Positions 49,227 through 60,720 of a stretch of 64,000 nt of DNA are shown in pieces. The stretch is taken from positions 1-64,000 of the forward strand of contig CAWJIM010000003.1 in the NCBI GenBank assembly GCA_963842945.1, read 5' to 3'. The position numbers and the translations under genes are program-made. This DNA comes from an uncultured Gemmatimonadales bacterium. Its GTDB lineage: Bacteria; Gemmatimonadota; Gemmatimonadetes; Gemmatimonadales; GWC2-71-9. The notes below the pieces were generated by a model that saw nothing but the letters and a program-made list of their open reading frames with translations, searched no databases and was not told the DNA's origin. How positions within the stretch are numbered: the stretch's first letter is position 1; each line of letters starts with the position of its first letter.

Positions 49227-51507
49227 TCAGCGGATTGGCTGCTCCTCTAGACCCACCCGCAGATCGAAGTCTTCACGAGCAAGACCTCGCGTGACTGGGC
49301 CCCCCTGTCGCTCGGGGATGGGCGCCTCACTCCACCCAGCGGCTTCCAGTACCTCCGCGGTTAGCCGGTTCACGGTATCGGCCTGATCCGGCGTTGTCGC
49401 GTTCGCCGCGGCCAGGTCGAGCCAGGCCAGGCGCTTCCGCAAAGGCATACCGTTCCACCGCGGCATCTCCGGCGATTCGGGCAAAGCGATAGGCGAGCGC
49501 CGGCTCGCCTCCCCGGTCGGCATGCCGGGCGATCTCTCGCGCCATCTCGCCACTGCCGGATGAGGCTGTAAGCCGCTCGAGCGCAAGCGCCAGGCTTCGA
49601 TGAACCTCGCCCCTGCGGGCGTCGCTCAGTCCATCGCGCACCACATGGGCAATGACCGGGTGAGCGCAGCGGTAAGAGCCTCCTTCCTCAACCAGAAGGC
49701 GCCGATCAACCAGGGCGTCGGCCACTCCCGCTGCGTGCAGTCGCGAGATGCCGTGCACGTGCGAGAGCACCTCCGAGCGGCACCCCAAACCGGCCACCGC
49801 GACGGTCATGAGGATTTCCCGCAGCTCGTCAGGGAGTCGTTCGATCCGCTCCGCAATGACATCGTGCACGGTCTGAGAGACGGGAAACTCCCTTCCCTGC
49901 TGGCTCATGGCTTGAGGGGAGACAGTCCACTCGCCGGTCTCATCGTCCACCGCGAGCAGGCCCTGGGCGAACATGGTCTTCAGTAGCTCGATGACGTAGA
50001 ACGGGTTACCAGCGGTCACTCCATAGATCCGATTGGCGAACCGCCTGGCACCCGTCGGCGTGCTCACATGCCCCATCTCATGGATCATCCGCCAGAGCTC
50101 TTCCTCCCTCAGTGGCTGAACCGAAATGACAGTGGCGTGAGATTTGGCCCGCAGGACCCGACACAATCGCACCGAGGGTGCATCTCGTTCTACTTCTCCC
50201 GAGTTCAGGGTACCCAGCCAGAGCACCGGGGCTTCTTCGGTCCGCCGAACCAGGTACCGCAGCAGGTCGCAGCTCTCGCCGTCACACCACTGCATGTCAT
50301 CAATCGAAACAACCAGCGGACGCTCCGCTGCCAGGGCGAGAATTACCTGCGCCACGCCCTCGAACAGCCGCCACGCGGAGGAGCTGTCCACCGGCGGCGA
50401 TAGCTCAGGCAGCGAGGGGAACCGCTGCCGCATTTCCGGCTGCAGGCGAGCCACTTCGGCCAGCCACTCGGGGGGCGCACCGGCCAGTCCCGGCGTGCTG
50501 AGCGCATCGCGCAGCATCTCCATGACCGGCTCGTAGGGAATGCCGGGTTTGGCGTCGTAGCCGTGGCCTCGCAAGACACTGCCGGCATTGGCCACGGCCC
50601 AACGGAGAAACTCTTCGGCCAGACGCGATTTGCCGACGCCGGCCTCCCCCTCGAGCAGCACGATCCTGCTCTGGCCTCGTTTCACTTCTTTCCAGGTTTC
50701 CAGCAGCGATCCCCACTCGTTTTCCCGCCCGATCAGCCTGGCTTCGAAGCTGGGTGCCCGGGCATACCACTCATCCGACATGGGACGAGCATTGATGGGA
50801 GAGACATCGGCTTCGACCCGACGAATAAGGTTGAGCAACCCCCGGCTGGGCTCGCACCCGGTCTCCTGGAGCAGAGTTGCTCGGTACTGCTGGTAGCGTC
50901 CGAGCGCGGCGCCCCGGTCGCCGGCCAGATAGCGCGCCTCGATGGCCAGCCGGACCGCGTCGTCGGAGAGCGGATCACCCGCGAGCCAGCGGTCGGCGAT
51001 CGCGATGGCATCGCGCCAGCGCCACTGGCCCATTGCTTCCCGGGTCAGTGTGCTCAGGGCCTCCTGGTATTGATGCATGAGGCCGCGCCGAGTCTCGGCG
51101 GCCCACTCTTCGAATCGTGGAGAATGACGAATGGAAAAACCCGAGAGGAAGCGCGGAATCTCCGTGGTGAGCGCAAGGGCCGGCTCCTGGGCCGCTCGGC
51201 GGCGAAATTCGCACACCTCGCAATCCAGGGGGCCTTCCAGACCTACACTCGCGCGGCTGATGCGGAGCAGCTCGCCGATCTGACCCCGGAGATGTTTCAG
51301 CGCCTGCCGGAGGGACGCCCGCGCCTCGTCATCGGACGACTCTCCCCAGAGGAGTCCGGCCAATTCCTCGCGGGTGTGAAGTCCGGATTCCAGAGCGAGA
51401 TAGGTGAGAAGGGCGAGCGCCTTGGCGCTGGGCTGCGGCACCAGGCGGCCCGTATCGGCGCGGGCGAGTATCGGTGGACCGAGCAGAGTCAGGCAGACGT
51501 CTGCCAC
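49227..51507 (-). CDS. SARP/AfsR-like regulator: wHTH-BTAD-AAA ATPase (frameshift near 49430)
   Basis: LTLLGPP, REELAGLLWGE...ARASLRQAL, DPLSD, GCEPS, LIGRE, GEAGVGKSRL, IDDMQWCD, TAGNPFY. Confidence 0.88.
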
Positions 51508-51569
51508 CGTAATGGTCCTGTGGGGGATGTTACAACCTGGAGAGGAAAACCCGGACCGGCAAGGGGCCT

Positions 51570-51611
51570 TTCACGATCAATTCACGATCGGTCGTCAAAT
51601 TGTGCTACGAT
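51570..51611 (+). promoter_or_regulatory. Putative activator-dependent promoter 1
   Basis: TTCACGATC at 51570 and 51581 (11-bp period), then ATTGTGC-TACGAT (extended -10-like). Confidence 0.6.
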
Positions 51612-51640
51612 TTCAACACCCGACCCAAGGAGGTCACATC

Positions 51641-51804
51641 ATGTCAGGCAGCGACACCTTCCGGATCACCCTTACCCCGGAGCAGAAGGAACAGGTGCGT
51701 AAGGCTACCGGGAAAGAGGCGAACACCATCGAGTTGACCGTCGAAGAGTTGGAAGAGCGCATCGCGCCGATGACCCTGGGAAGCGGAGAGCGTACCCCAG
51801 CTGA
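51641..51804 (+). CDS. Precursor-like peptide 1 (about 54 aa, ...VEELEERIAP-MTLG...)
   Basis: AAGGAGGT RBS; MSGSDTFRITLTPEQKEQVRKATGKEANTIELTVEELEERIAPMTLG; TGA at 51802 is one base out of frame (probable indel), and as given the frame reads on to 52003. Confidence 0.75.
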
Positions 51805-51806
51805 AA

Positions 51807-51848
51807 TTCACGGAACTTTCACGGAAGCCGTGAAGATTGTGCCATCGT
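51807..51848 (+). promoter_or_regulatory. Putative activator-dependent promoter 2
   Basis: TTCACGGAA at 51807 and 51818 (11-bp period), then ATTGTGC-CATCGT at the same spacing as promoter 1. Confidence 0.6.
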
Positions 51849-51896
51849 TTCGCCACACCAGTCACATCACGCATAAACACCTTGCCGGAGGACATC

Positions 51897-52037
51897 ATGA
51901 AAGACCAGAAGAATCAGTTCCGCATCGAGCTGACCCCGGACCAGAAGAATCAGGTTCGCCACGCAACCGGCAAGGATGCAGAGGCAGTGGAGCTCTCGGT
52001 TGAAGAGTTGGAGGAGAGGATCGCCCCTGCCAGCTGA
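51897..52037 (+). CDS. Precursor-like peptide 2 (46 aa)
   Basis: GGAGG RBS; MKDQKNQFRIELTPDQKNQVRHATGKDAEAVELSVEELEERIAPAS; 28/37 identical to peptide 1 over the shared block. Confidence 0.8.
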   Translation: MKDQKNQFRIELTPDQKNQVRHATGKDAEAVELSVEELEERIAPAS

Positions 52038-52067
52038 AGCCGCAAGCCGAGTAGCGGTAATCTGGGT

Positions 52068-52136
52068 GGCCCAAGCCAAGGTATCGGCTTGGGCCCCCGC
52101 CGCCGACCGGTCCGGACCTCAACGGGTCCGGACCGG
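52068..52136 (+). other. Two tandem GC-rich hairpins after the peptide genes
   Basis: GGCCCAAGCC/GGCTTGGGCC (52068-52095) and CCGGTCCGGACC/GGTCCGGACCGG (52107-52136); no adjacent U-tract. Confidence 0.7.
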
Positions 52137-52196
52137 CCGTCTGGTGCATATGGTTTTCACGCTACAGCTTAGAACGTCCTCACAAGTCCCGATCCC

Positions 52197-54137
52197 ATGC
52201 CGGACATCATCAGCTCCCCCGAAAGCTCCATTGAAGAGCTCCGGGATGAGGTAGCCCGCCTTCGGCTGATCCACGCGATCGGCCTCGAGTTCAGCACGTC
52301 GCTGGACTTCGACGAGCTGCTTCCCCGGATCTTCCATCGCGTGCTGGAGGCGCTCGGCGCCGAGGGTGGGTCCCTCTGGATCGCGGAGGATGAAGAGCTC
52401 TGTTGCCGACTGGCCGAGGGGAGAGCGGGCAAGAAGCTGGTCGGCGCCCGGGTGCCGATCGGCACCGGGTTCGTGGGTGACGTGGCCCAGCGGCCCAGGA
52501 CCACGATCGTGACCCGCGCCGTGGAAGACCCGCGCTACCAGCCGGCCCTCGACTCGGGAGAAGCTCTCGCCACTACCGTCATGGCCACGGCCATGGTATC
52601 CGGCGGGGTCACCGTCGGATCGATTCAGGTAGCCAACAAGGTGACCGGCGATGGCATCTTCGATCAGCGCGACCGGGAGCTGCTCGAGGGACTTGCCGCC
52701 AGTGCAGCCGCTGCCCTCCGCAACGCGCAGCTCCACAGCGTCGAAAGCCGGGCTCGGGACCTGGCGGTCCTGCTGGAGATCAGCCGTGAGATCACCGCCA
52801 CGCTCGACCTCGACCGGGTGCTCCGCTCGGTAGTGAATCTCGCGTCTCAGGCGCTGCCGTTCGACCGCGGAGCAGTGGGTCTATATCAGAAGGGTCAGTG
52901 CGAGATCCGCGCGGTGGCAGGACAGGAGAAAGTCGACCAGGATGACCCCAAGCTGCAGGACCTGATAGCCCGGGCGGCGTGGGCGGCAGGTCATGGAGAG
53001 CAGCTCTATCTCTCCGATCGGACCAACACCGCCTCGGATGCCGAGCGGATGTTCGTCTCGATATTCGGCCCAGACCTGGAGTCGGACGGAGTCGAGAGCG
53101 GGCTCTACCTGCCGCTCAAGGATGAAGAGGGAGTCGTCGGGGTTCTGGTCTTCGAGTCGGGCAAGCCTGACCTCGCCACCGAGAGCCAGCTCGAAGTCGC
53201 GGCCATCCTGGCCAACCAGACCACGGTCGCCCTTCGCAACGCCCAGCTCTACCACGAGGTCCCCATGGTGGACGCGCTGGGAGCGCTCGCCGCCAAGAAG
53301 AAGGCACTGTCTTTCCCTGCCCCGCCGCAAACTGCAGCTGTACCTCGCCGTTGCCCTCGCCGTCCTGGCCGCATTGACCCTGTTCCGCTGGCCCCTTCGG
53401 GTGTCCGGCAGCGGGGCCAGTTTCCGGCCGGTCGCCTATGCTCCGGTCCGAGCGCAGGTAGCCGGCGTGGTCGAGCGGCTGCTGGTTAACGAGGGATCCA
53501 CGGTCTCCCGCGGTGCGCCACTCGCGACGCTGCGCGCCACCGACCTCATGGCCGAGCGCGCGACCACGGCCGCAGACCTGGAAGCGGCGGAGCGCTCCGC
53601 CGCGCTGGCAGCGAGCCGGGGCGATCCGGCAGAGCAGCGGATGCAGCAGATCCGCGGTGAATCGCTGCGCCAGGAGCTGGCGTTGCTGGACGAGGAGGTG
53701 GCGCTCACCACGGTTCGAGCACCAACAGCGGGTATGGTACTCACTCCTCATGTCGGCGAGCAGGTCGGCAGCTCGCTCGAGGAAGGTGATCTGCTGCTGA
53801 CGCTTGGGCCGGACCGACACGCTGGAGCTCGAGTTCGGGATCGATCAAAGAGACATCGCCCGGGTGACGCCGGGACAGACGACCCTGCTGCGGGTGGACG
53901 CGCTGCCGCAGCGCACATTCGACGCACGGGTGACCTCGGTCGGCCTGGTTCCACTCGACAGCGGTTCCACGGTGCACTACCCGGTCCGGGCCGTGGTGGC
54001 CAATCCTCAGGGTCTCTTGAAGCCCCAGATGGCGGCATACGCCAGAGTGCTCACCTCACCGCGAGAGCGCGCTCGATCGAGTGCTCCGAGGGCCGAGCCG
54101 GTGGCTCAGGGTAGCGTGGTGGAAGGTGCGTCCATGA
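52197..54137 (+). CDS. GAF-GAF-TM-membrane fusion (HlyD-like) protein, frameshifts near 53315, 53805 and 54070-54100
   Basis: Two GAF domains (LDFDELL...ALRNAQL; LDLDRVL...ALRNAQL), a TM helix, VRAQVAGVVERLLVNEG.TV.RG.PL and VRAPTAG lipoyl-like halves. Confidence 0.82.
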
Positions 54138-55113
54138 GATATCTCCCTCTCGCTCGCCGGCCTCGTGGCCTGTGGTCAGCAGCCTGCCGCCCGTCCTCCA
54201 GCACAGGGGACGGAAACTGCGTCACTCACCGCGCAGGCGCCGAATGTCGTCTCGGTGGACACGGTAACGCTTCAGGTCCCGCTCAGACTGCCATCGCAAC
54301 TCTACGTGGAGCACGATGCGGCGGTTTTCGCCCGATCCTCGGGCGTGGTCCAGTCCATTCTGGCCGATCTCGGTAGCCGGGTTCGAGCCGGGCAGTTGCT
54401 GGCGCAACTGGAGACCACGGACCAGGAGATTGCGCTGTCTCAGGCGCGGGAAAAGTTCACCAGCGCCCAACAGACAGTCGAGCGGCAGCGGGCATTGAAG
54501 GTGGCGGGCGTCGTCACCCAGGCCGACTCCGAACGGATCGAGAGCGAATATCGCGAGGCAGTCCTGGATCTGCGGAAGGCCGAACGCGATCTCGATCTGA
54601 CTCACATCACCGCACCATTTGCCGGGATGGATCACCGCCCGCTCGGCGCGGATCCACCGGATGGTCAATTCAGGCGACTCGCTGTTTCGGATTACGGCAA
54701 TGAGTCCGTTACTCGCCGCTATTCGGGTACCCGAGGCTTCCGCAGGGGGAATCCGCATCGGAACCTCGGCTGAGGTGGTGGGCCCGAACGGGGTAACCGT
54801 CTCTGCCCGGGTCATTCGAGCGTCGCCCGTGCTGGACGCGGGGAGCGGCACCCGTGAAATCATCCTGCAACTCGGCGAACAGGCCGCCGGCCTCACCCCG
54901 GGGAACAACGTCACCATTCAGCTGGGGGCAACCCGCCGGCAGGTCGTGGTAGTGCCCCGAACGGCGGTCGCGCAGGACGGCTATGCCCTGATCTGGGATA
55001 ATGAGAAGACGATCCTTCGCCCGGTGACCATCGGCGCCGAGCTGGGCGACGGGAGGGTTGAGGTGCTGAGCGGGCTCGCTGCCGGAGAGAAGGTCGTCCG
55101 GAGCGCGCAATGA
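54134..55113 (+). CDS. RND-type periplasmic adaptor (MFP), probable lipoprotein, frameshifted
   Basis: LVAC lipobox; ARSSGVV..DLGSRVRAGQLLAQL; ITAPF.G; VEVLSGLAAGEKVV; ATGA overlap with the upstream gene. Confidence 0.85.
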
Positions 55114-57162
55114 GCAGCGGCCCCAAGCTTCGCGAAGATCTCGTGCTGGTGGAGCAGACCTACCGCGGGGAGCAGAGCTTCATCGTAAAGGATCCGGAGA
55201 GCCGCAAGTACTTTCGGTTCCGCCCGCTGGAGATCCGGGTGATGCAAGCTCTGGACGGCCAGCACACACCGGCAGCCGCGGCGGACCTGCTCCGGGCCAA
55301 CGGCGTCCCGGTATCCGCAGCCGCGGTGGAGAAGTTCGCCGCCAAGCTGACCGGGATGGGACTCTGCCAGAGGACGCTGGCCGAGCAATCGGTGTTGTTG
55401 ATGGAACGGCTCCGCGCCGAACGTCGCCGGCGGCTGAGTCCGCGAGTGTTTCAGGGCGATCTCTTCCGGATCAGGTGGTCGGTCGGTGATCCGGATGAGT
55501 TGCTGAACCGCTGGTTGCCGCGTCTGCGGTTCTGCTTCTCCCGCACATTCCTCGGCCTCTCGGTTGCGCTGTTCCTGGTCTATTTCGTAATCGTGGGTCT
55601 CAGGTGGTCGGAATTTTCCAGCGCACTGGCTGACCTCTACACGCTCAGAGTGGGCTTCGGGGATCTGGTGGTGCTGTGGGTGACCGGCACCGTCATTATC
55701 GCGATCCACGAGCTGGGTCATGGCTTCACCTGCAAGTATTTCGGCGGCGAAGTGCACGAGATCGGTGCAATGCTGATCTATTTCGAGCCTGCGTTCTTCT
55801 GCAACGTAAATGACGCCTGGACCTTTCCGGAGCTGCGCGCCCGGCTCTGGGTTACCGCCGCCGGTTCCTGGATTCAACTGGTACTCGCCAGCGTCGCGGC
55901 CATCATCTGGTGGGCCGCCAACCCGGGTACCCTGGTGTCGCAGGTGGCGTTTGCCGCGGTTCTCATCGGCGGGCTCACCACGGTCCTGATGAACCTGAAT
56001 CCGCTGATCCCGCTGGATGGCTACTATGCGCTGAGCGACTATCTCGAGGTTCCCAACCTGCGGCAACGCGCCGGACGCCATGTCTCCTGGCTGATCAAAA
56101 CCCGGGTGTTCCGTCTGGATCTGCCGGAACCTCCGGCCGACGAGCGGGAACGGCGCATCTTCCTGATCTATGGCACCCTGGCGGCCGGATACATCACCCT
56201 GATCCTGGCCTTCTGTGCCGTCAACACCTATGGCTGGCTCAGCCGCACACTCGGCAGCATCGGAACCCTGATCTTTGCGGGTATGGTCTTGCTTGCCCTC
56301 CGGCGGCAACTCCTGGCTGTGGAAGGATTCGTTGGCAGCCGTATTTCACAAGCTGACTACCCGGCTGAGATCCGCCCGGGTTCGGTCGCGGCTGCTGGCC
56401 GGTGCCGCCGTGGTGCTCATCCTTGGATGTCTGATCCCCTGGCCAATCACGGTCTCGGGCCCGTTCACGGTCTGGGCTGGGGCATCGCTCCCCCTGACAG
56501 CACCGGACAGTGGGATGGTCGGTCAGGTCAATGTTCGGGAGGGAAGCTGGGTGGAGACAGGGAGCCCGCTGCTTCGGCTTCGCAGCTTCGGCCTGGAGCG
56601 GGAGGCGGTTGTGCTTCGTCGGACGGTCGATTCGCTGTCTCTGGCGATTGCCCGGGCCAGGGCTGCCGACCGGTCCTCGGACGTGGCCCAGATGGAGGCT
56701 CTCCTGTCCGTCGACGCAGCCAGGCTGGGAGGACTCGACGATCAAATCCGCGCTTTCAGCATACGGGCGGTAAGTTCCGGCAGAGTCCTCACCCCGCGGC
56801 CGGAAGAGCTGGCGGGCCGCGGAGTCTCCCGGGGAGAGGTTCTGCTCCGCCTGGGACGAGTGGACAGTCTCGAAGTGCGGATCTCGCTCAGGGGAGCCGG
56901 GGCGAGCTCGGTTGTGTCGGGCCAGCCAGTCAGCCTCCTCCCCAACACCATGGCGGCAGAGGCGCTGACCAGCAGAATCCTTCAGGTATCCACCACCGCC
57001 GAGCCGACCCACTCGCTGGAAGGAAGGGTGCGGTTGGCGGCGCTCGACCCCTGGCGCCCGGGGATGAGCGGCCGGGCCAGAGTCACGCTGCGCCAGTCCA
57101 ACCTCTGGGGCGCCCTCTGGTGGTCCATTCGGCGGGAGATTCGGAGCGATATCCTCCTCTGA
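55110..57162 (+). CDS. PqqD/RRE-like domain - M50 (site-2) zinc protease - MFP fusion (frameshift near 56320)
   Basis: N-terminal FIVKDP...YFRF...LDG.HT...L..MGL; HELGH; AAGS; NLNPLIPLDGYY; C-terminal APDSG.V..V.VREG.WV..G.PL and RPGMSGRARV. Confidence 0.85.
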
Positions 57163-57242: not shown

Positions 57243-58072
57243 ATGCTGGCCCTGGTGCGTCAAGCCTTTGATGGGCGCTACCAAGTCGAAAGTGAGATCG
57301 GCCGGGGGGAAACGCGCGCATCTTTCTCGCTCGTGACGCCGAGGGGCGCCCTGTCGCGCTCAAGATCCTGCATCCCGAGCTCCTGGTCAGCGTCGCCGCC
57401 GACCGATTTCTCCGGGAGATCAAGCTCGCTTCTCAGCTCAGCCACCCTCATATCGCGCGGCTGCTGGATTCAGGAGAACGCGACTGGCTGATCTACTACG
57501 TGATGGAGTTCGTGGACGGCCAAACCCTGCGGGAGCGGCTCGACAGCTCGCGGCAACTCTCGATCGTGGAGACCCTCCGGATCGCATCCGATCTGCTGGA
57601 TGCGCTGGATCATGCCCACCGGCAGGGCATCATTCACCGCGACGTCAAACCCGCCAACGTGGTGCTGTCGGCGCGCGGCGCAATACTGCTGGACTTCGGC
57701 ATTGCCCGGGCGGTCATTGCTTCGGGAACCGACCAGCTGACCCGGTCGGGAATTGCCGTCGGGACATCGACCTACATGAGCCCGGAGCAGATCACGGCGG
57801 TGACCGACATCGATCACCGCAGCGACCTGTACTCGGTGGGCTGCGTGCTCTACGAGTGCCTGGCGGGCCAGGCGCCATTCGTCCACCGCAACGAGGCCGT
57901 GGTGCTGCAGCTCCACCTCACTCAGCCGGCTCCGGACGTCCGCACCCTCCGCGGCGACACACCCCCGGAGCTTGCCACCGCAATCGCCAAGGCTATGGCC
58001 AAGGCGCCCAACGATCGCTGGCGCTCGGCGGCCGAGATGCGAGAGACCTTGGCGGCGGTGCCCGTCCCGTAA
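57243..58072 (+). CDS. Stand-alone Ser/Thr protein kinase (frameshift near 57310)
   Basis: EIGRG, VALKILHPE, RFLREI, HRDVKPAN, DFG, GTSTYMSPEQ; no TM or C-terminal domain. Confidence 0.88.
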
Positions 58073-58157
58073 TCTCGAATCGCAGGTTCCCTCTGCTGGC
58101 CCGCTCCAGTACCCATCTCTATCTTGTAAAGACACTCCCGATTTCCGAGGCATCCCC

Positions 58158-60720
58158 TTGGCCGACTCTGCTCGAACCCTTACGTGCGGCACTCGAAGGG
58201 CGTTATGCCGTTGAGCGGCTGCTCGGGCAGGGTGGGATGGCCACGGTGTACCTGGCCAGAGACTGCCGCCACGATCGCCCGGTGGCCATCAAGGTGCTCC
58301 GTCCGGAGCTCGCGGCCTCCTTAGGGGCAGACCGATTCCTCCGCGAGATCAAGCTCGCCGCCAATCTCCAGCACCCGAACATTCTTGCACTGTACGACTC
58401 GGGGGATGCCGGGGGATTCCTTTATTACGTCATGCCGTTGGTGGAGGGTGAGTCTCTGCGTGCCCGGCTCGACCGGGAAAGCCAGCTCTCGGTCCCGGAT
58501 GCCATTCAACTCACCTGCGAGGTGGCCGAGGCGCTACACTGCGCCCACAGCCGGGGCATCATTCACCGAGATATCAAGCCGGAAAACATCCTGATCCAGG
58601 AAGGGCACGCTCTGGTGGCCGACTTCGGGATCGCCCGGGCGGTGACGGAGGCGGGGGGCGACAAGCTCACCGAGACCGGCATGGCCGTCGGCACACCCCA
58701 CTACATGAGTCCGGAACAGGCGCTCGGCTCGCGCTCACGTGGATGGGCGCAGCGACGAGTACAGTCTGGGTTGCGTGACCTACGAAATGCTGGTAGGCCA
58801 GCCTCCCTTTGACGGGCCCAACGCCATGGCAATTCTGGCCCGCCACTCGATGGAGGGGGTGCCGAGCCTGCGGGTCGTCCGGCATTCCGTTCCCGACGAG
58901 GTCGAGACTGCAATCGGGCGGGCTCTGGAGAAGACGCCGGCCGACCGCTTTCCCACGGTTCGGGAGTTCTCCGATGCTCTGCTGCAGGCGGATCTCGGCC
59001 CGACCGCACGGCGGACCTCACCGCAGGCATTACGGGCAAACCGGAGAAGTACTCCAGTCAAGTCGCCGGCGCTCTCGGCCAAGAGTCCGCGACTCTGGGC
59101 ACTCGCGGCTGCGGTACTGGTGGCGTTGACAGGCACCGGTTGGGGGATCTGGCGCTTCTCGCACCGACCGGTCGCACCGGCATCAGCAACCGGATCCGGC
59201 GGTCTCGACCCTCACCGCATCGCGGTCCTCTATTTCCAGGCGGAAGGCGGTAAGGACTCGCTCGGGTACTTGGCGGATGGTCTCACCGAGGGTCTGATCC
59301 GCCAGCTGGACCAGGTTCCAGGATTGGATGTCATATCCAAGGGAGGAGTTGCGGCCGTACCGAGGCGACAGCGTGTCGCGGGATAGCGTCGCGCGCGCCC
59401 TGCGATGCCGGGACGCTGGTGGCCGGGGGAATCGAGCGGGAGGGTGGCCAGCTCAGGGTGACCGTGCGACTGGTCGACGGATCCAGTGGAGCCGAGTTTG
59501 GCCGGGCTAGCTTTGCCGAGCCCGCTGGTAAGCTGCTGGCAGTTCAGGATTCAGTCAGTCAGAAGGTGGCCGGCCTGATTCGCGAGCGTCTAGGCGAGGA
59601 GATCCGGCTCCGGGAGCAGCGCAATCGAACTCGCAGCGTGGCAGCATGGGCATTGGTCCAAAGAGCCGAGCAGGCGAGAAAGCAGGCCGAAGCCCTGGTG
59701 GAGAAGAATGACACGACCGGAGCCAGCGCCGGCACATTCGAGCGAGCGGATTCGCTTTACGCCCAAGCGCATTTGGCGGATCCGAGCTGGACCGAGCCTC
59801 TGACAGACCGGGCCGGGGTTGCCTACCGGCGCTCGCGCCTGGTCGGGCTGAACGGTGTGGCCGCCAAGCCATGGATCGAAAAGGGCCTGAAGCTCGCCGA
59901 CAGCGCGCTGGCACTCGCGCCGGAGGACCCCGACGGCCTGGAGGTGCGGGGTACACTCCGCTACTGGAAATGGCTGCTCAGGATCGAGGCCGACCCCCAG
60001 GCCGTCGATCAGCTGCTCAACGGTGCGCAGAACGATCTGGAGACCGCCGTCAGAGTGAATCCATCACAGGCGGGCGCCTGGGCGATCCTCAGCCATATGT
60101 ACAGCAACACCAAGAGTGAGACCGACGCGAAGCTGGCTGGCCTGCGCGCCTACGAGGCGGACGCGTATCTCCGAGATGCCCCCCAGGTCCTTAACCGGCT
60201 GTTCACCACCTCCTACGACCTGACTCAGTTCGCGGATGCAGCCCGGTGGTGCGATGAGGGCGCGCGCCGCTTTCCCAGCGATTTCAACTTCACCGGGTGC
60301 AAGCTCTGGATAATGACCACCAGGATCCGAGACCCCGATGTGGCGCTCGCGTGGAAGCTGGCTGATAGCCTCAGGAAGCTAGCCCCCGCGAGCCGGCGGG
60401 AATACGACACCCGGGACGCGAGGATGGCCGTCGCCATGGTGCTTGCCCGGGCCGGGCTAAAGGACAGCGCGCGAGCAGTGGCACTCCGAGCCCGCGGCGG
60501 AACCGACGTGGACCCCAATCAAGATCTCGCATATAGCGAGGTCTATGTACATCTCCTGCGCGGTGATAAGGACCAGGCACTGGAAGCGCTCAAGCGCTAC
60601 CTGGCCGCAAACCCGGAGCGAAGGATTTCTTTGGCGGATACAACCCATACCACCACTAGCTGGTGGTTCCGGGGTCTGGAGGATGATCCGCGGTACAAAG
60701 CGCTGGTCTTCAGTAAGTAA
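58158..60720 (+). CDS. Ser/Thr kinase - TM - TolB-N-like - TPR receptor-type protein (frameshifted)
   Basis: [39 protein letters not shown]...LADGLTEGLI; TPR helices; DDPRYKAL. Confidence 0.88.

Follow-up and report, generated by a model that had tools for sequence, protein, structure and literature searches.

A Gemmatimonadota family of putative precursor peptides with conserved acidic leaders and hypervariable cationic tails, encoded beside an intramembrane protease and HlyD-type adaptors

We analysed a stretch of 64,000 nt from an uncultured soil Gemmatimonadales bacterium (assembly GCA_963842945.1, contig CAWJIM010000003.1, positions 1 to 64,000 of the forward strand; hereafter the window), which carries two small paralogous peptide genes upstream of a cassette for a membrane protease and adaptor proteins. 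With moderate confidence, we read the two genes as encoding ribosomal precursor peptides of a large Gemmatimonadota family, in which an acidic leader of about 43 residues precedes a very short cationic core, and which would be processed by a leader-guided protease and exported. The family is apparently undescribed as well as large. The two genes are as follows.

51641..51804, plus strand: putative precursor peptide gene 1; start ATG 51641, leader of 43 amino acids (aa; 51641-51769) ending ELEERIAP, tail from ATG 51770
51897..52054, plus strand: putative precursor peptide gene 2; start ATG 51897, leader of 44 aa (51897-52028)

A sequence-only reading of this region had described two paralogous small genes with a conserved leader and a variable tail, which the list of open reading frames (ORFs) buries in longer frames with wrong starts, and both observations hold. 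Between FRI and IAP the two peptides agree at 28 of 37 residues, and their divergence begins directly past IAP. A GGAGG-type ribosome-binding site lies 6-9 nt before each of the real ATGs at 51641 and 51897, while the ORF list places peptide 1 inside a 199-aa ORF (GTG 51404) and peptide 2 inside a 66-aa ORF (TTG 51837). The GC content of the peptide-gene region is 0.56-0.58, versus 0.65-0.69 in the flanks. When the window's own genome (24 contigs, completeness 86.9%, contamination 6%) was searched with peptide 2, it returned peptide 1 at E 2.1e-13 and two further paralogs on contigs C19 and C21, with the tails SKQSVTPRIGPRGGL and VKAW; the genome holds one cassette and four peptide genes. Because the nonsynonymous divergence (dN) of the window pair is 0.215 against a synonymous divergence (dS) of 1.65, the duplication appears to be old, and the pair appears to have been kept by purifying selection.

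Homologs, for which the sequence-only reading had proposed to search, proved numerous. In addition to the two own-genome paralogs, a family profile built from the four copies (the two window genes and those on C19 and C21) matched 2847 small proteins at E<=0.01, with 3445 candidates scored. Their sources label them 'hypothetical protein' or 'DUF1192 family' and no more, and both organism names supplied are Gemmatimonadales. DUF1192 (PF06698) is a source name only; neither window peptide matches a Pfam family at E<=0.01. No NCBIfam model was found for either peptide at E<=0.1, save a chance match to PRTRC_E (0.025), and the ESM Atlas returned only unnamed 'hypothetical protein' clusters of 51-302 members. 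One family member, P0001, carries a partial internal duplication of the leader. Among 401 genomes of the phylum, the profile matches 66 (E<=0.001); 21 of the 24 genomes that represent the window's genus besides the window's own are among these.

Selection acts differently on the two parts of these peptides. Over the 37-codon leader block, dN/dS is 0.19-0.20, in line with the purifying selection that the sequence-only reading had made a condition of its proposal; this set comprised 37 genes (one of them at locus L011 of the unpublished genome G057) and 666 pairs, 535 of them usable, and left out the C21 copy, which has an insertion. In the last 13 leader codons, the proportion of nonsynonymous differences (pN) is 0.11 versus 0.65 for synonymous differences (pS). 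Tails were described from the best 120 of the 2847 profile matches, of which 117 with a tail of <=20 aa were kept; P0015, P0016 and P0020 were dropped as read-throughs with tails >20 aa, and P0091, which reads VEERIAP and was flagged by a stricter motif pattern, was accepted by the pattern used for tail statistics and is among the 117. After the LEERIAP-type motif, the tails run for 6-15 aa (mean 9.5), and 108 of them are distinct. Their 1108 residues are 26% K+R, 12% P and 12% G, with 0.3% D, 0% E and 0% C, and every tail has a net charge of +1 to +5, versus -3.8 for the last 37 leader residues. The first tail residue is A, S, M or T in 105/117 and the second is K in 58/117. Pairwise identity is 0.86 in the leader block versus 0.14 in the tails, rising to only 0.23 for tails where leaders are >=95% identical, and five different tails occur on one identical 37-aa leader block. 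In the fetched loci, D and E make up 9.2% of residues when tail DNA is translated off frame, versus 0.7% in frame. Because of this contrast, the tails appear to be translated and selected for their composition, with their sequence almost free. Together with a dN/dS of about 0.2, the divergence of conserved leader and variable tail bears out the earlier suggestion of a precursor with a conserved leader and a variable core.

In the window, both tails are probably distorted by 1-base deletions. As assembled, peptide 1 stays open to 52003, giving 120 aa with a 77-aa 'tail', and the tail of peptide 2 is AS, with the stop TGA 52035-52037 two residues past IAP. These tails of 77 and 2 aa are the sole outliers, since tails measure 4-15 aa in 36 other unique genes of related genomes. 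One base on, the frame of peptide 1 reads KRRAYPS and then TGA 51802-51804, for which an extra base is needed near 51776-51781; orthologs with the leader type of peptide 1, P0078 and P0119, end in MTIAGKRRAYPS and MTAAGKRRAYPA (...AGKRRAYPS and ...AGKRRAYPA). Peptide 2 continues in the next frame with KPQAE and then TAG 52052-52054, and its orthologs P0003 and P0044 end in SSLKPKPRG and SSLKPKPR. Once the indels are allowed for, the true window tails are probably about 8-11 aa long.

Contigs of relatives, compared over 51400-52300, point the same way. They come from four public runs of four studies (three of soil or rhizosphere DNA and one soil metatranscriptome), are 88-99% alike and do not belong to the strain of the window organism. 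Three additional bases, C behind 52033, A behind 51803 and T behind 52060, are found in 4/4 of these runs, each extending a short same-base run of the window, and ATAG behind 51775, found in 2/4, restores the ortholog frame of peptide 1. The sequence-only reading had guessed one extra base in each gene, with peptide 1 ending at TGA 51802 and peptide 2 near 52053; the first guess matches the ortholog ends and the ATAG insertion, and the second the extra C behind 52033. Because these contigs disagree with one another in the tail region and downstream of 52040, with eight further indels beyond those listed here, they do not fix the exact tails of the window organism.

These data bear on whether the window might instead hold one longer ordinary ORF, of 120 or 199 aa, or chance ORFs, a case that the sequence-only reading had itself named against its proposal. 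The open frame of peptide 1 as assembled and the 199-aa entry of the ORF list would speak for it, but the frame stops 4-15 codons past IAP in the 36 other genes, both ATGs have strong ribosome-binding sites and dN/dS is about 0.2. Longer database forms do exist, 44 in number, but all are singletons (105-442 aa); the motif can be recognised in 37 of them, where it lies <=15 residues from the C-terminus or near residue 28-39, and these 37 forms appear to be over-extended starts or read-throughs and not large tagged proteins. We find a long or chance ORF scarcely credible. The same evidence touches the suggested resemblance of the acidic leader end to the LEPRxLL-type motif of large secreted proteins, which lapses here: the peptides have no NCBIfam or Pfam match to it, and a search for fused or long forms with a profile of the long Gemmatimonadales leader, a method weak for long proteins, found no large tagged protein.

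The reading as precursor peptides draws on the neighbouring genes, which form a cassette with them.

49327..51507, minus strand: divergent SARP-type regulator with BTAD and AAA_16 STAND ATPase domains (Pfam)
52197..54136, plus strand: membrane-fusion protein of GAF-GAF-transmembrane-HlyD type; a single 646-aa ORF in clean relatives (locus L028), here in three frames
54078..55113, plus strand: second HlyD-type adaptor; its clean ortholog has 344 aa and a lipoprotein signal (..IAGC), here in two frames
55110..57162, plus strand: M50 intramembrane protease with a predicted N-terminal RiPP recognition element (RRE; RiPP, a peptide made by the ribosome and then modified post-translationally) and a C-terminal HlyD-like (HlyD_3) domain; 684 aa in clean relatives

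Scans with Pfam and NCBIfam of the window cassette and of that of a clean relative (G198) found only these four types of gene, namely SARP, GAF-HlyD, HlyD and M50-HlyD, and kinases. In the window, the GAF adaptor extends over three frames, which implies about two indels, the second adaptor over two and the protease over two, and each is a single ORF in the clean relative; the breaks fall near 53300, 53805, 54625 and 56300. Residues 1-394 of the protease (55110-56285) are intact; a frameshift follows near 56285-56314, past which the wrong frame remains open by chance. The C-terminal part is read correctly from 56314-57162. The match of the SARP protein to a clean 759-aa ortholog spans residues 4-700, and its C-terminus is probably also affected by an indel. 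Taken together, the frame breaks read as an indel-prone assembly rather than as gene decay. A Ser/Thr kinase gene past the protease is also split between frames (57856-58812 and 58739-59386); across 52197-57162 and 57856-59386 there is about 1 indel per kb, the assembly looks unpolished and its indel load may also depress the completeness figure of 86.9%.

The gene order SARP, peptide(s), GAF-HlyD, HlyD, M50 is present in 12 of 20 loci fetched around peptide matches in near-complete genomes. Among 68 species-level loci from a public genome collection, 49 have the SARP and GAF-HlyD genes next to the peptide, and the remaining genes are there too wherever the contig extends far enough; four have partial cassettes (L074, L080, L088, L105), two are ambiguous (L052, L089) and 13 have none. 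The titles of these 68 loci are nearly all Gemmatimonadales or Gemmatimonadota, with two Longimicrobiales. Another four carry an Acidobacteria(ota) or Actinomycetota label, and for two of these the contig is about 1.5 kb long. In the 401 phylum genomes (protease at E<=1e-30), 66 match the peptide profile, 53 the protease and 47 both; these genomes are kin of each other, so the counts are not independent, and they include two unpublished genomes, G057 with both features and G182 with the protease only. Of the 19 genomes with the peptide only, 16 have only weak peptide matches (best E 6e-9 to 5e-4). Peptide loci that lie apart from a cassette must be served in trans.

Several lines of evidence suggest that the protease is an intramembrane M50 enzyme with an RRE domain fused to its N-terminus. 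Its nearest NCBIfam model is daptide_HExxH (NF041824, 'daptide biosynthesis intramembrane metalloprotease'), matched with 210 bits over profile positions 13-367 of 379. H200, E201 and H204 of the HExxH motif and N297, P298, P301, D303 and G304 of the NPxxPxDG motif are invariant in 34 protease sequences. Residues 25-86 give a faint PqqD-like match, and residues 1-120 are predicted (predicted local distance difference test, pLDDT, 81) to adopt a beta-beta-beta-alpha-alpha-alpha fold. When this fold was compared with the PDB by Foldseek, the best seven matches were all RRE, namely TbiB1 (5v1u, 5v1v), a lasso B1 protein (6jx3) and PqqD (5sxy), with probability 0.99-1.00 and a template-modelling (TM) score on the target of 0.61-0.70; 5v1u, 5v1v and 6jx3 are lasso-peptide B1 proteins in complex with their leaders. 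Ranks 8, 9 and 12 are cyanobactin heterocyclases, and rank 10 is a non-RRE protein. A sequence search of the PDB with protease residues 1-405 gave no match at E<=1. Complex prediction for residues 1-405 with the intact C19 paralog scored 0.45, versus 0.01 for the best of three controls, with at least 66% contact agreement between runs and a partner pLDDT of at least 47. In the benchmark of this method, 116 of 157 solved complexes and 2 of 215 mismatched pairs reached the mark; scores of <=0.60 account for only 18 of the 157 and for both passing mismatches. Solved RRE-leader complexes exist for other families, so likeness to them may account for the pass.

The closest known system appears to be the daptide precursor MpaA/DapA with its leader peptidase, yet by gene content the present system is apparently not a daptide system. 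The parts of the daptide paper covered here describe an RRE fused N-terminally to an intramembrane site-2 protease (MpaP/DapP) that cuts leaders, an average of 2.3 short precursor genes per cluster, a leader motif ELExMEAP (E(-8), L(-7), D(-6), P(-5), M(-4), E(-3), P(-1)), an invariant C-terminal Thr in the precursors, and the co-occurrence of ATP-binding cassette (ABC) transporters, aminotransferase, dehydrogenase and methyltransferase genes (10.1101/2023.03.08.531785). Measured against those parts, both systems have several short precursor genes, an RRE-M50 type of protease (here the NF041824 match and the predicted RRE fold) and a positively charged product. The acidic leader end agrees with the daptide motif in part: ELEERIAP has the same E(-8) and L(-7), is acidic at -6 and keeps A(-2) with P(-1), but differs at -5 to -3. 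In contrast, the cores are hydrophilic and cationic and 6-15 aa long here, whereas those described for daptides are rich in branched aliphatic residues; the leader is longer and has a second conserved block, LTPEQKxQVRxATGKDAE; the protease carries the extra HlyD-like domain and is accompanied by two further adaptors, one with two GAF domains; and the hosts are Gemmatimonadota, while the daptide producers named there are Streptomyces azureus and Staphylococcus hominis.

The absence of tailoring functions is a further difference. The cassette has neither DapB/C/D/M-type tailoring genes nor an ABC transporter, and no aminotransferase, dehydrogenase, methyltransferase, radical-SAM, YcaO or LanB-type gene was found in the cassette or beside the two orphan copies on C19 and C21. 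Given a cassette that encodes no tailoring enzyme, the probable product is an ultrashort cationic peptide that carries no modification. The alternative is a true modified RiPP, in which enzymes encoded elsewhere would tailor the tails, for example with daptide-like C-terminal chemistry, before the leader is removed. Leader-guided systems usually recruit tailoring enzymes, an RRE and a daptide-like leader appear to be present, and from the orphan precursor genes it is evident that some of the system works in trans; nevertheless, the tailoring genes are lacking beside the orphan copies as well, the C-terminal Thr needed for daptide chemistry is missing from all 117 tails and none contains Cys, and we regard this alternative as quite unlikely.

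Two other types of system resemble the cassette in part. The protease has a weaker NCBIfam match to the YydH/LiaK epipeptide protease (NF058609; 39 bits, E 6.5e-10), likewise a membrane HExxH protease maturing a small exported peptide, but 39 bits is far under the cut-off of 225, and neither a radical-SAM epimerase nor an ABC transporter is present here. Prochlorosin-type and double-glycine multi-precursor systems, in the parts of the source covered here, also combine many precursors, one conserved leader, hypervariable cores and a HlyD-type adaptor (PMC3140520). Unlike those and the systems with peptidase-containing ABC transporters (PCAT), the present leader ends in IAP with no GG or GA motif, the cassette encodes no C39 peptidase and no ABC protein, and the cores are far shorter (PMC3140520). 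A group of HlyD and M50 genes in cyanobacterial bacteriocin clusters was considered as a precedent and rejected: in the parts of that source covered here M50 is absent, and the peptidases are C39-ABC proteins (PMC3140520).

The sequence-only reading had also suggested a likeness to pearlin scaffold peptides, in which a peptide aminoacyl-tRNA ligase (PEARL) enzyme adds an amino acid from aminoacyl-tRNA to the C-terminus of a scaffold, and the product is then cut off. The resemblance of the acidic C-terminal region is all that suggests it, and very short tails could look like a scaffold end. However, no match to PF04738 (LanB N-terminal/PEARL) was found in the window's own genome, a weak negative at 86.9% completeness with control genomes silent too; such a gene is absent from 12/12 complete cassettes that were checked using the window's proteins, and also from the window and G198 cassettes as scanned with Pfam; and the tails are genetically encoded, variable and charge-constrained, which would be needless for a mere scaffold end. 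The likeness did not stand, and a pearlin scaffold is very improbable.

Regulation links the peptide genes to the SARP protein by a repeated box, which occurs twice in the window.

51570..51586, plus strand: direct repeat TTCACG-N5-TTCACG with a period of 11 nt; lies 55-71 nt upstream of peptide 1, within the divergent intergenic region common with the SARP gene
51807..51823, plus strand: second TTCACG-N5-TTCACG box, 74-90 nt upstream of peptide 2

The two boxes (51570 and 51807) compare with 0.28 expected from shuffles. The second starts 3 nt past the proposed stop of peptide 1 (TGA 51802-51804), and its position thus fits peptide 1 ending there. An exact TTCACG pair with 11-nt spacing lies <=140 nt upstream of 25 of the 38 unique peptide genes in the window, its own genome and related loci; two of the others have a pair 33 nt apart, three a single hexamer and eight none, most of these eight being later genes of tight arrays. 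A third box is often found 21-23 nt further up at cassette-proximal peptide genes. The window's own genome has eight exact boxes versus 0.35 expected from hexamer frequency, and each of its four peptide genes is preceded by one of them. SARP activators are known to use operators built of direct repeats in an 11-nt phase, and we infer that the TTCACG boxes are the SARP operator. The arrangement resembles Streptomyces SARP systems (AfsR and its afs box), with a BTAD plus AAA STAND regulator and 11-nt hexamer repeats upstream of targets, conserved across genomes; it differs in that the repeat is TTCACG and not of the actinomycete TCGAGxx type, the targets are mini-peptide genes in a Gram-negative phylum, and binding is predicted. 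The other four exact boxes (G000:C3:65137, C18:71436, C21:57709 and C21:285488) each precede a small ORF, and three of these ORFs begin with a lipoprotein-type signal (..VIGC, ..LASC, ..IAAC). The four extra ORFs may belong to the same regulon, with immunity or receptor lipoproteins as one reading. On contig C19, a longer second SARP-AAA-TPR regulator of 1114 aa (L045:10897-14241), 30% identical to the cassette regulator of a clean relative, lies about 4 kb from the orphan peptide gene.

Based on these findings, we propose the following mechanism. The divergent SARP/STAND activator would bind the 11-nt-phased TTCACG boxes and switch on each peptide gene, both orphan copies included. The cytoplasmic N-terminal RRE of the M50 protease would then dock the ELEERIAP end of the leader, and the HExxH/NPxxPxDG site would cut after Pro(-1), by analogy with daptide precursors; the cut is placed after the proline because ELEERIAP fits the daptide leader register. 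The freed tail may exit via an assembly of three parts, namely the periplasmic adaptor domain that the protease itself carries, the lipoprotein adaptor and the adaptor with GAF gating; in this assembly, the GAF domains would serve as a cytoplasmic gate or sensor.

A different division of labour would make the acidic 43-aa part itself the active product, a small cytoplasmic regulator partnering, for example, the SARP/STAND protein or the GAF domains, with the basic tail as a membrane tether or degron and the M50 enzyme carrying out regulated intramembrane-type proteolysis. SpoIVFB acting on pro-sigma-K and RseP acting on RseA provide models for such proteolysis. The N-terminal half of the leader is as conserved as its ELEERIAP end and is missing in acidobacterial relatives, which have only ..VEELEERIAP, so this half may serve something other than RRE docking; tails of as few as 4-6 aa with an identity of 0.14 make a sequence-specific extracellular role hard to picture, and the cassette has no pump. 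On the other hand, the cassette conserves three periplasmic adaptor domains of HlyD type, which point to passage through the envelope, the tails are constrained (always net positive, with almost no acidic residue), and the closest characterised relative of the protease, in the parts of the daptide literature covered here, removes leaders from exported peptides. We consider an active leader unlikely.

Several observations weigh against precursor peptides that are matured by this protease and exported. The 210 bits of the protease fall under the daptide equivalog cut-off of 300, the Foldseek E-values for RRE are weak (2.3e-3 at best) and the complex prediction lends weak support only. Three genomes with strong peptide matches (G170, G112, G075) have no protease match, six genomes with the protease (G268, G156, G182, G348, G055, G389) have no peptide match, and 8/20 and 13/68 of the peptide loci have no cassette protein within the fetched flanks; in the eight, none of the four cassette proteins is present. 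Domain scans found no ABC, resistance-nodulation-division (RND) or major facilitator superfamily (MFS) pump and no outer-membrane factor in the cassette, leaving the energy and route of export unexplained. Nearly every cassette gene of the window is frame-broken, so that a decaying locus is possible. Cleavage, binding and export are inferred for the family as a whole, and a contig that hints at transcription in a relative (773 nt, described below) may contain DNA.

A more far-reaching form of the proposal is that the cassette encodes an undescribed release machine of diderm bacteria, in which a leader-reading M50 protease and three adaptor domains, one of them GAF-gated, would release unmodified cationic peptides of 4-15 residues with no ABC, RND or MFS pump. 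The peptides would form a strain-variable signalling code, a Gram-negative counterpart of Gram-positive pheromones, with feedback via the SARP/STAND protein and the TTCACG boxes. We offer this tentatively, as a rather unlikely extension. As to function, we lean slightly towards a diffusible signal over a competition factor or weapon. The positive-feedback architecture and the lack of an immunity gene point toward a signal, and the presence of several tails per genome under one regulator is closer to multi-precursor systems than to one-ligand-one-receptor signalling.

To our knowledge, almost no secreted peptides have been studied in the Gemmatimonadota, which are abundant soil bacteria. The proposed system would couple a daptide-like leader and protease to another output, namely ultrashort, charge-constrained and hypervariable peptides and an export set with no recognisable pump. 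If this is true, leader-guided processing extends beyond tailoring chemistry, a compact leader and protease pair becomes available for releasing arbitrary short peptides, and peptide signalling or warfare in this phylum becomes directly testable. It should also be noted for annotation that gene callers routinely miss or mis-start these peptide genes. Neither the peptide family nor an M50-adaptor machine turned up in the literature searched; the supplementary cluster lists of two bioRxiv daptide papers lie outside that search and may hold relatives of the protease. The parts of a 2025 daptide preprint covered here mention neither HlyD nor any word beginning with Gemmatimon. Literature searches for the leader-motif strings gave, among the matches listed, only botanical and mycological papers, apparently through 'Keteleeria'; the combination of RRE, site-2 protease and HlyD led only to the daptide paper, and that of HlyD, M50 and precursor cluster to unrelated papers only. 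For RiPP precursors in Gemmatimonadota, no title or abstract start among the matches listed suggested this system.

Relatives outside the phylum have a shorter form of the leader. A locus in an Acidobacteria metagenome-assembled genome (MAG; L105:6787-9089) carries, in tandem, three genes whose short leader ends in ...VEELEERIAP and whose N/G/P-rich tails are about 28 residues long; they lie directly upstream of an RRE-M50-HlyD protein 38% identical to the window protease. This locus looks like a sister system in another phylum. Further single matches are P0276 from a Deltaproteobacteria MAG and P0280 from a Blastocatellia MAG. Given these three, the ELEERIAP-type tag with this protease therefore reaches beyond the phylum, and the long LTPEQK...ATGKDAE leader looks specific to Gemmatimonadota. 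In P0280, one 123-aa ORF holds three leader-like repeats (..VEEMEEVIAP, ..VEDMEEVIVP and ..VEELEEVIAP), each followed by a short segment, and this protein may be a multi-core precursor.

One or two Ser/Thr kinase genes on the same strand follow the protease in loci of the window's genus, namely the window and L025, L028, L030, L032, L035 and L044; the distant cassettes L036, L038 and L043 are without them, and kinases are abundant in these genomes. At the RNA level, a soil-metatranscriptome contig of 773 nt with a depth of 39 spans 51645-52300, and six RNA runs hold parts of the stretch, a hint that the peptide region is transcribed in a relative. No consensus sigma-70 promoter and no intrinsic terminator was found in 51450-52250, and Rfam gave only a chance small-RNA match (E 0.79) over 51400-52300. 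One structured element lies between peptide 2 and the GAF gene.

52064..52145, plus strand: two strong GC-rich hairpins with no T-run; minimum free energy -69.3 kcal/mol, z -6.05, with 0/200 shuffles as good

These hairpins are possibly a partial terminator or an mRNA-stabilising element, and a similar hairpin follows the peptide gene in L028.

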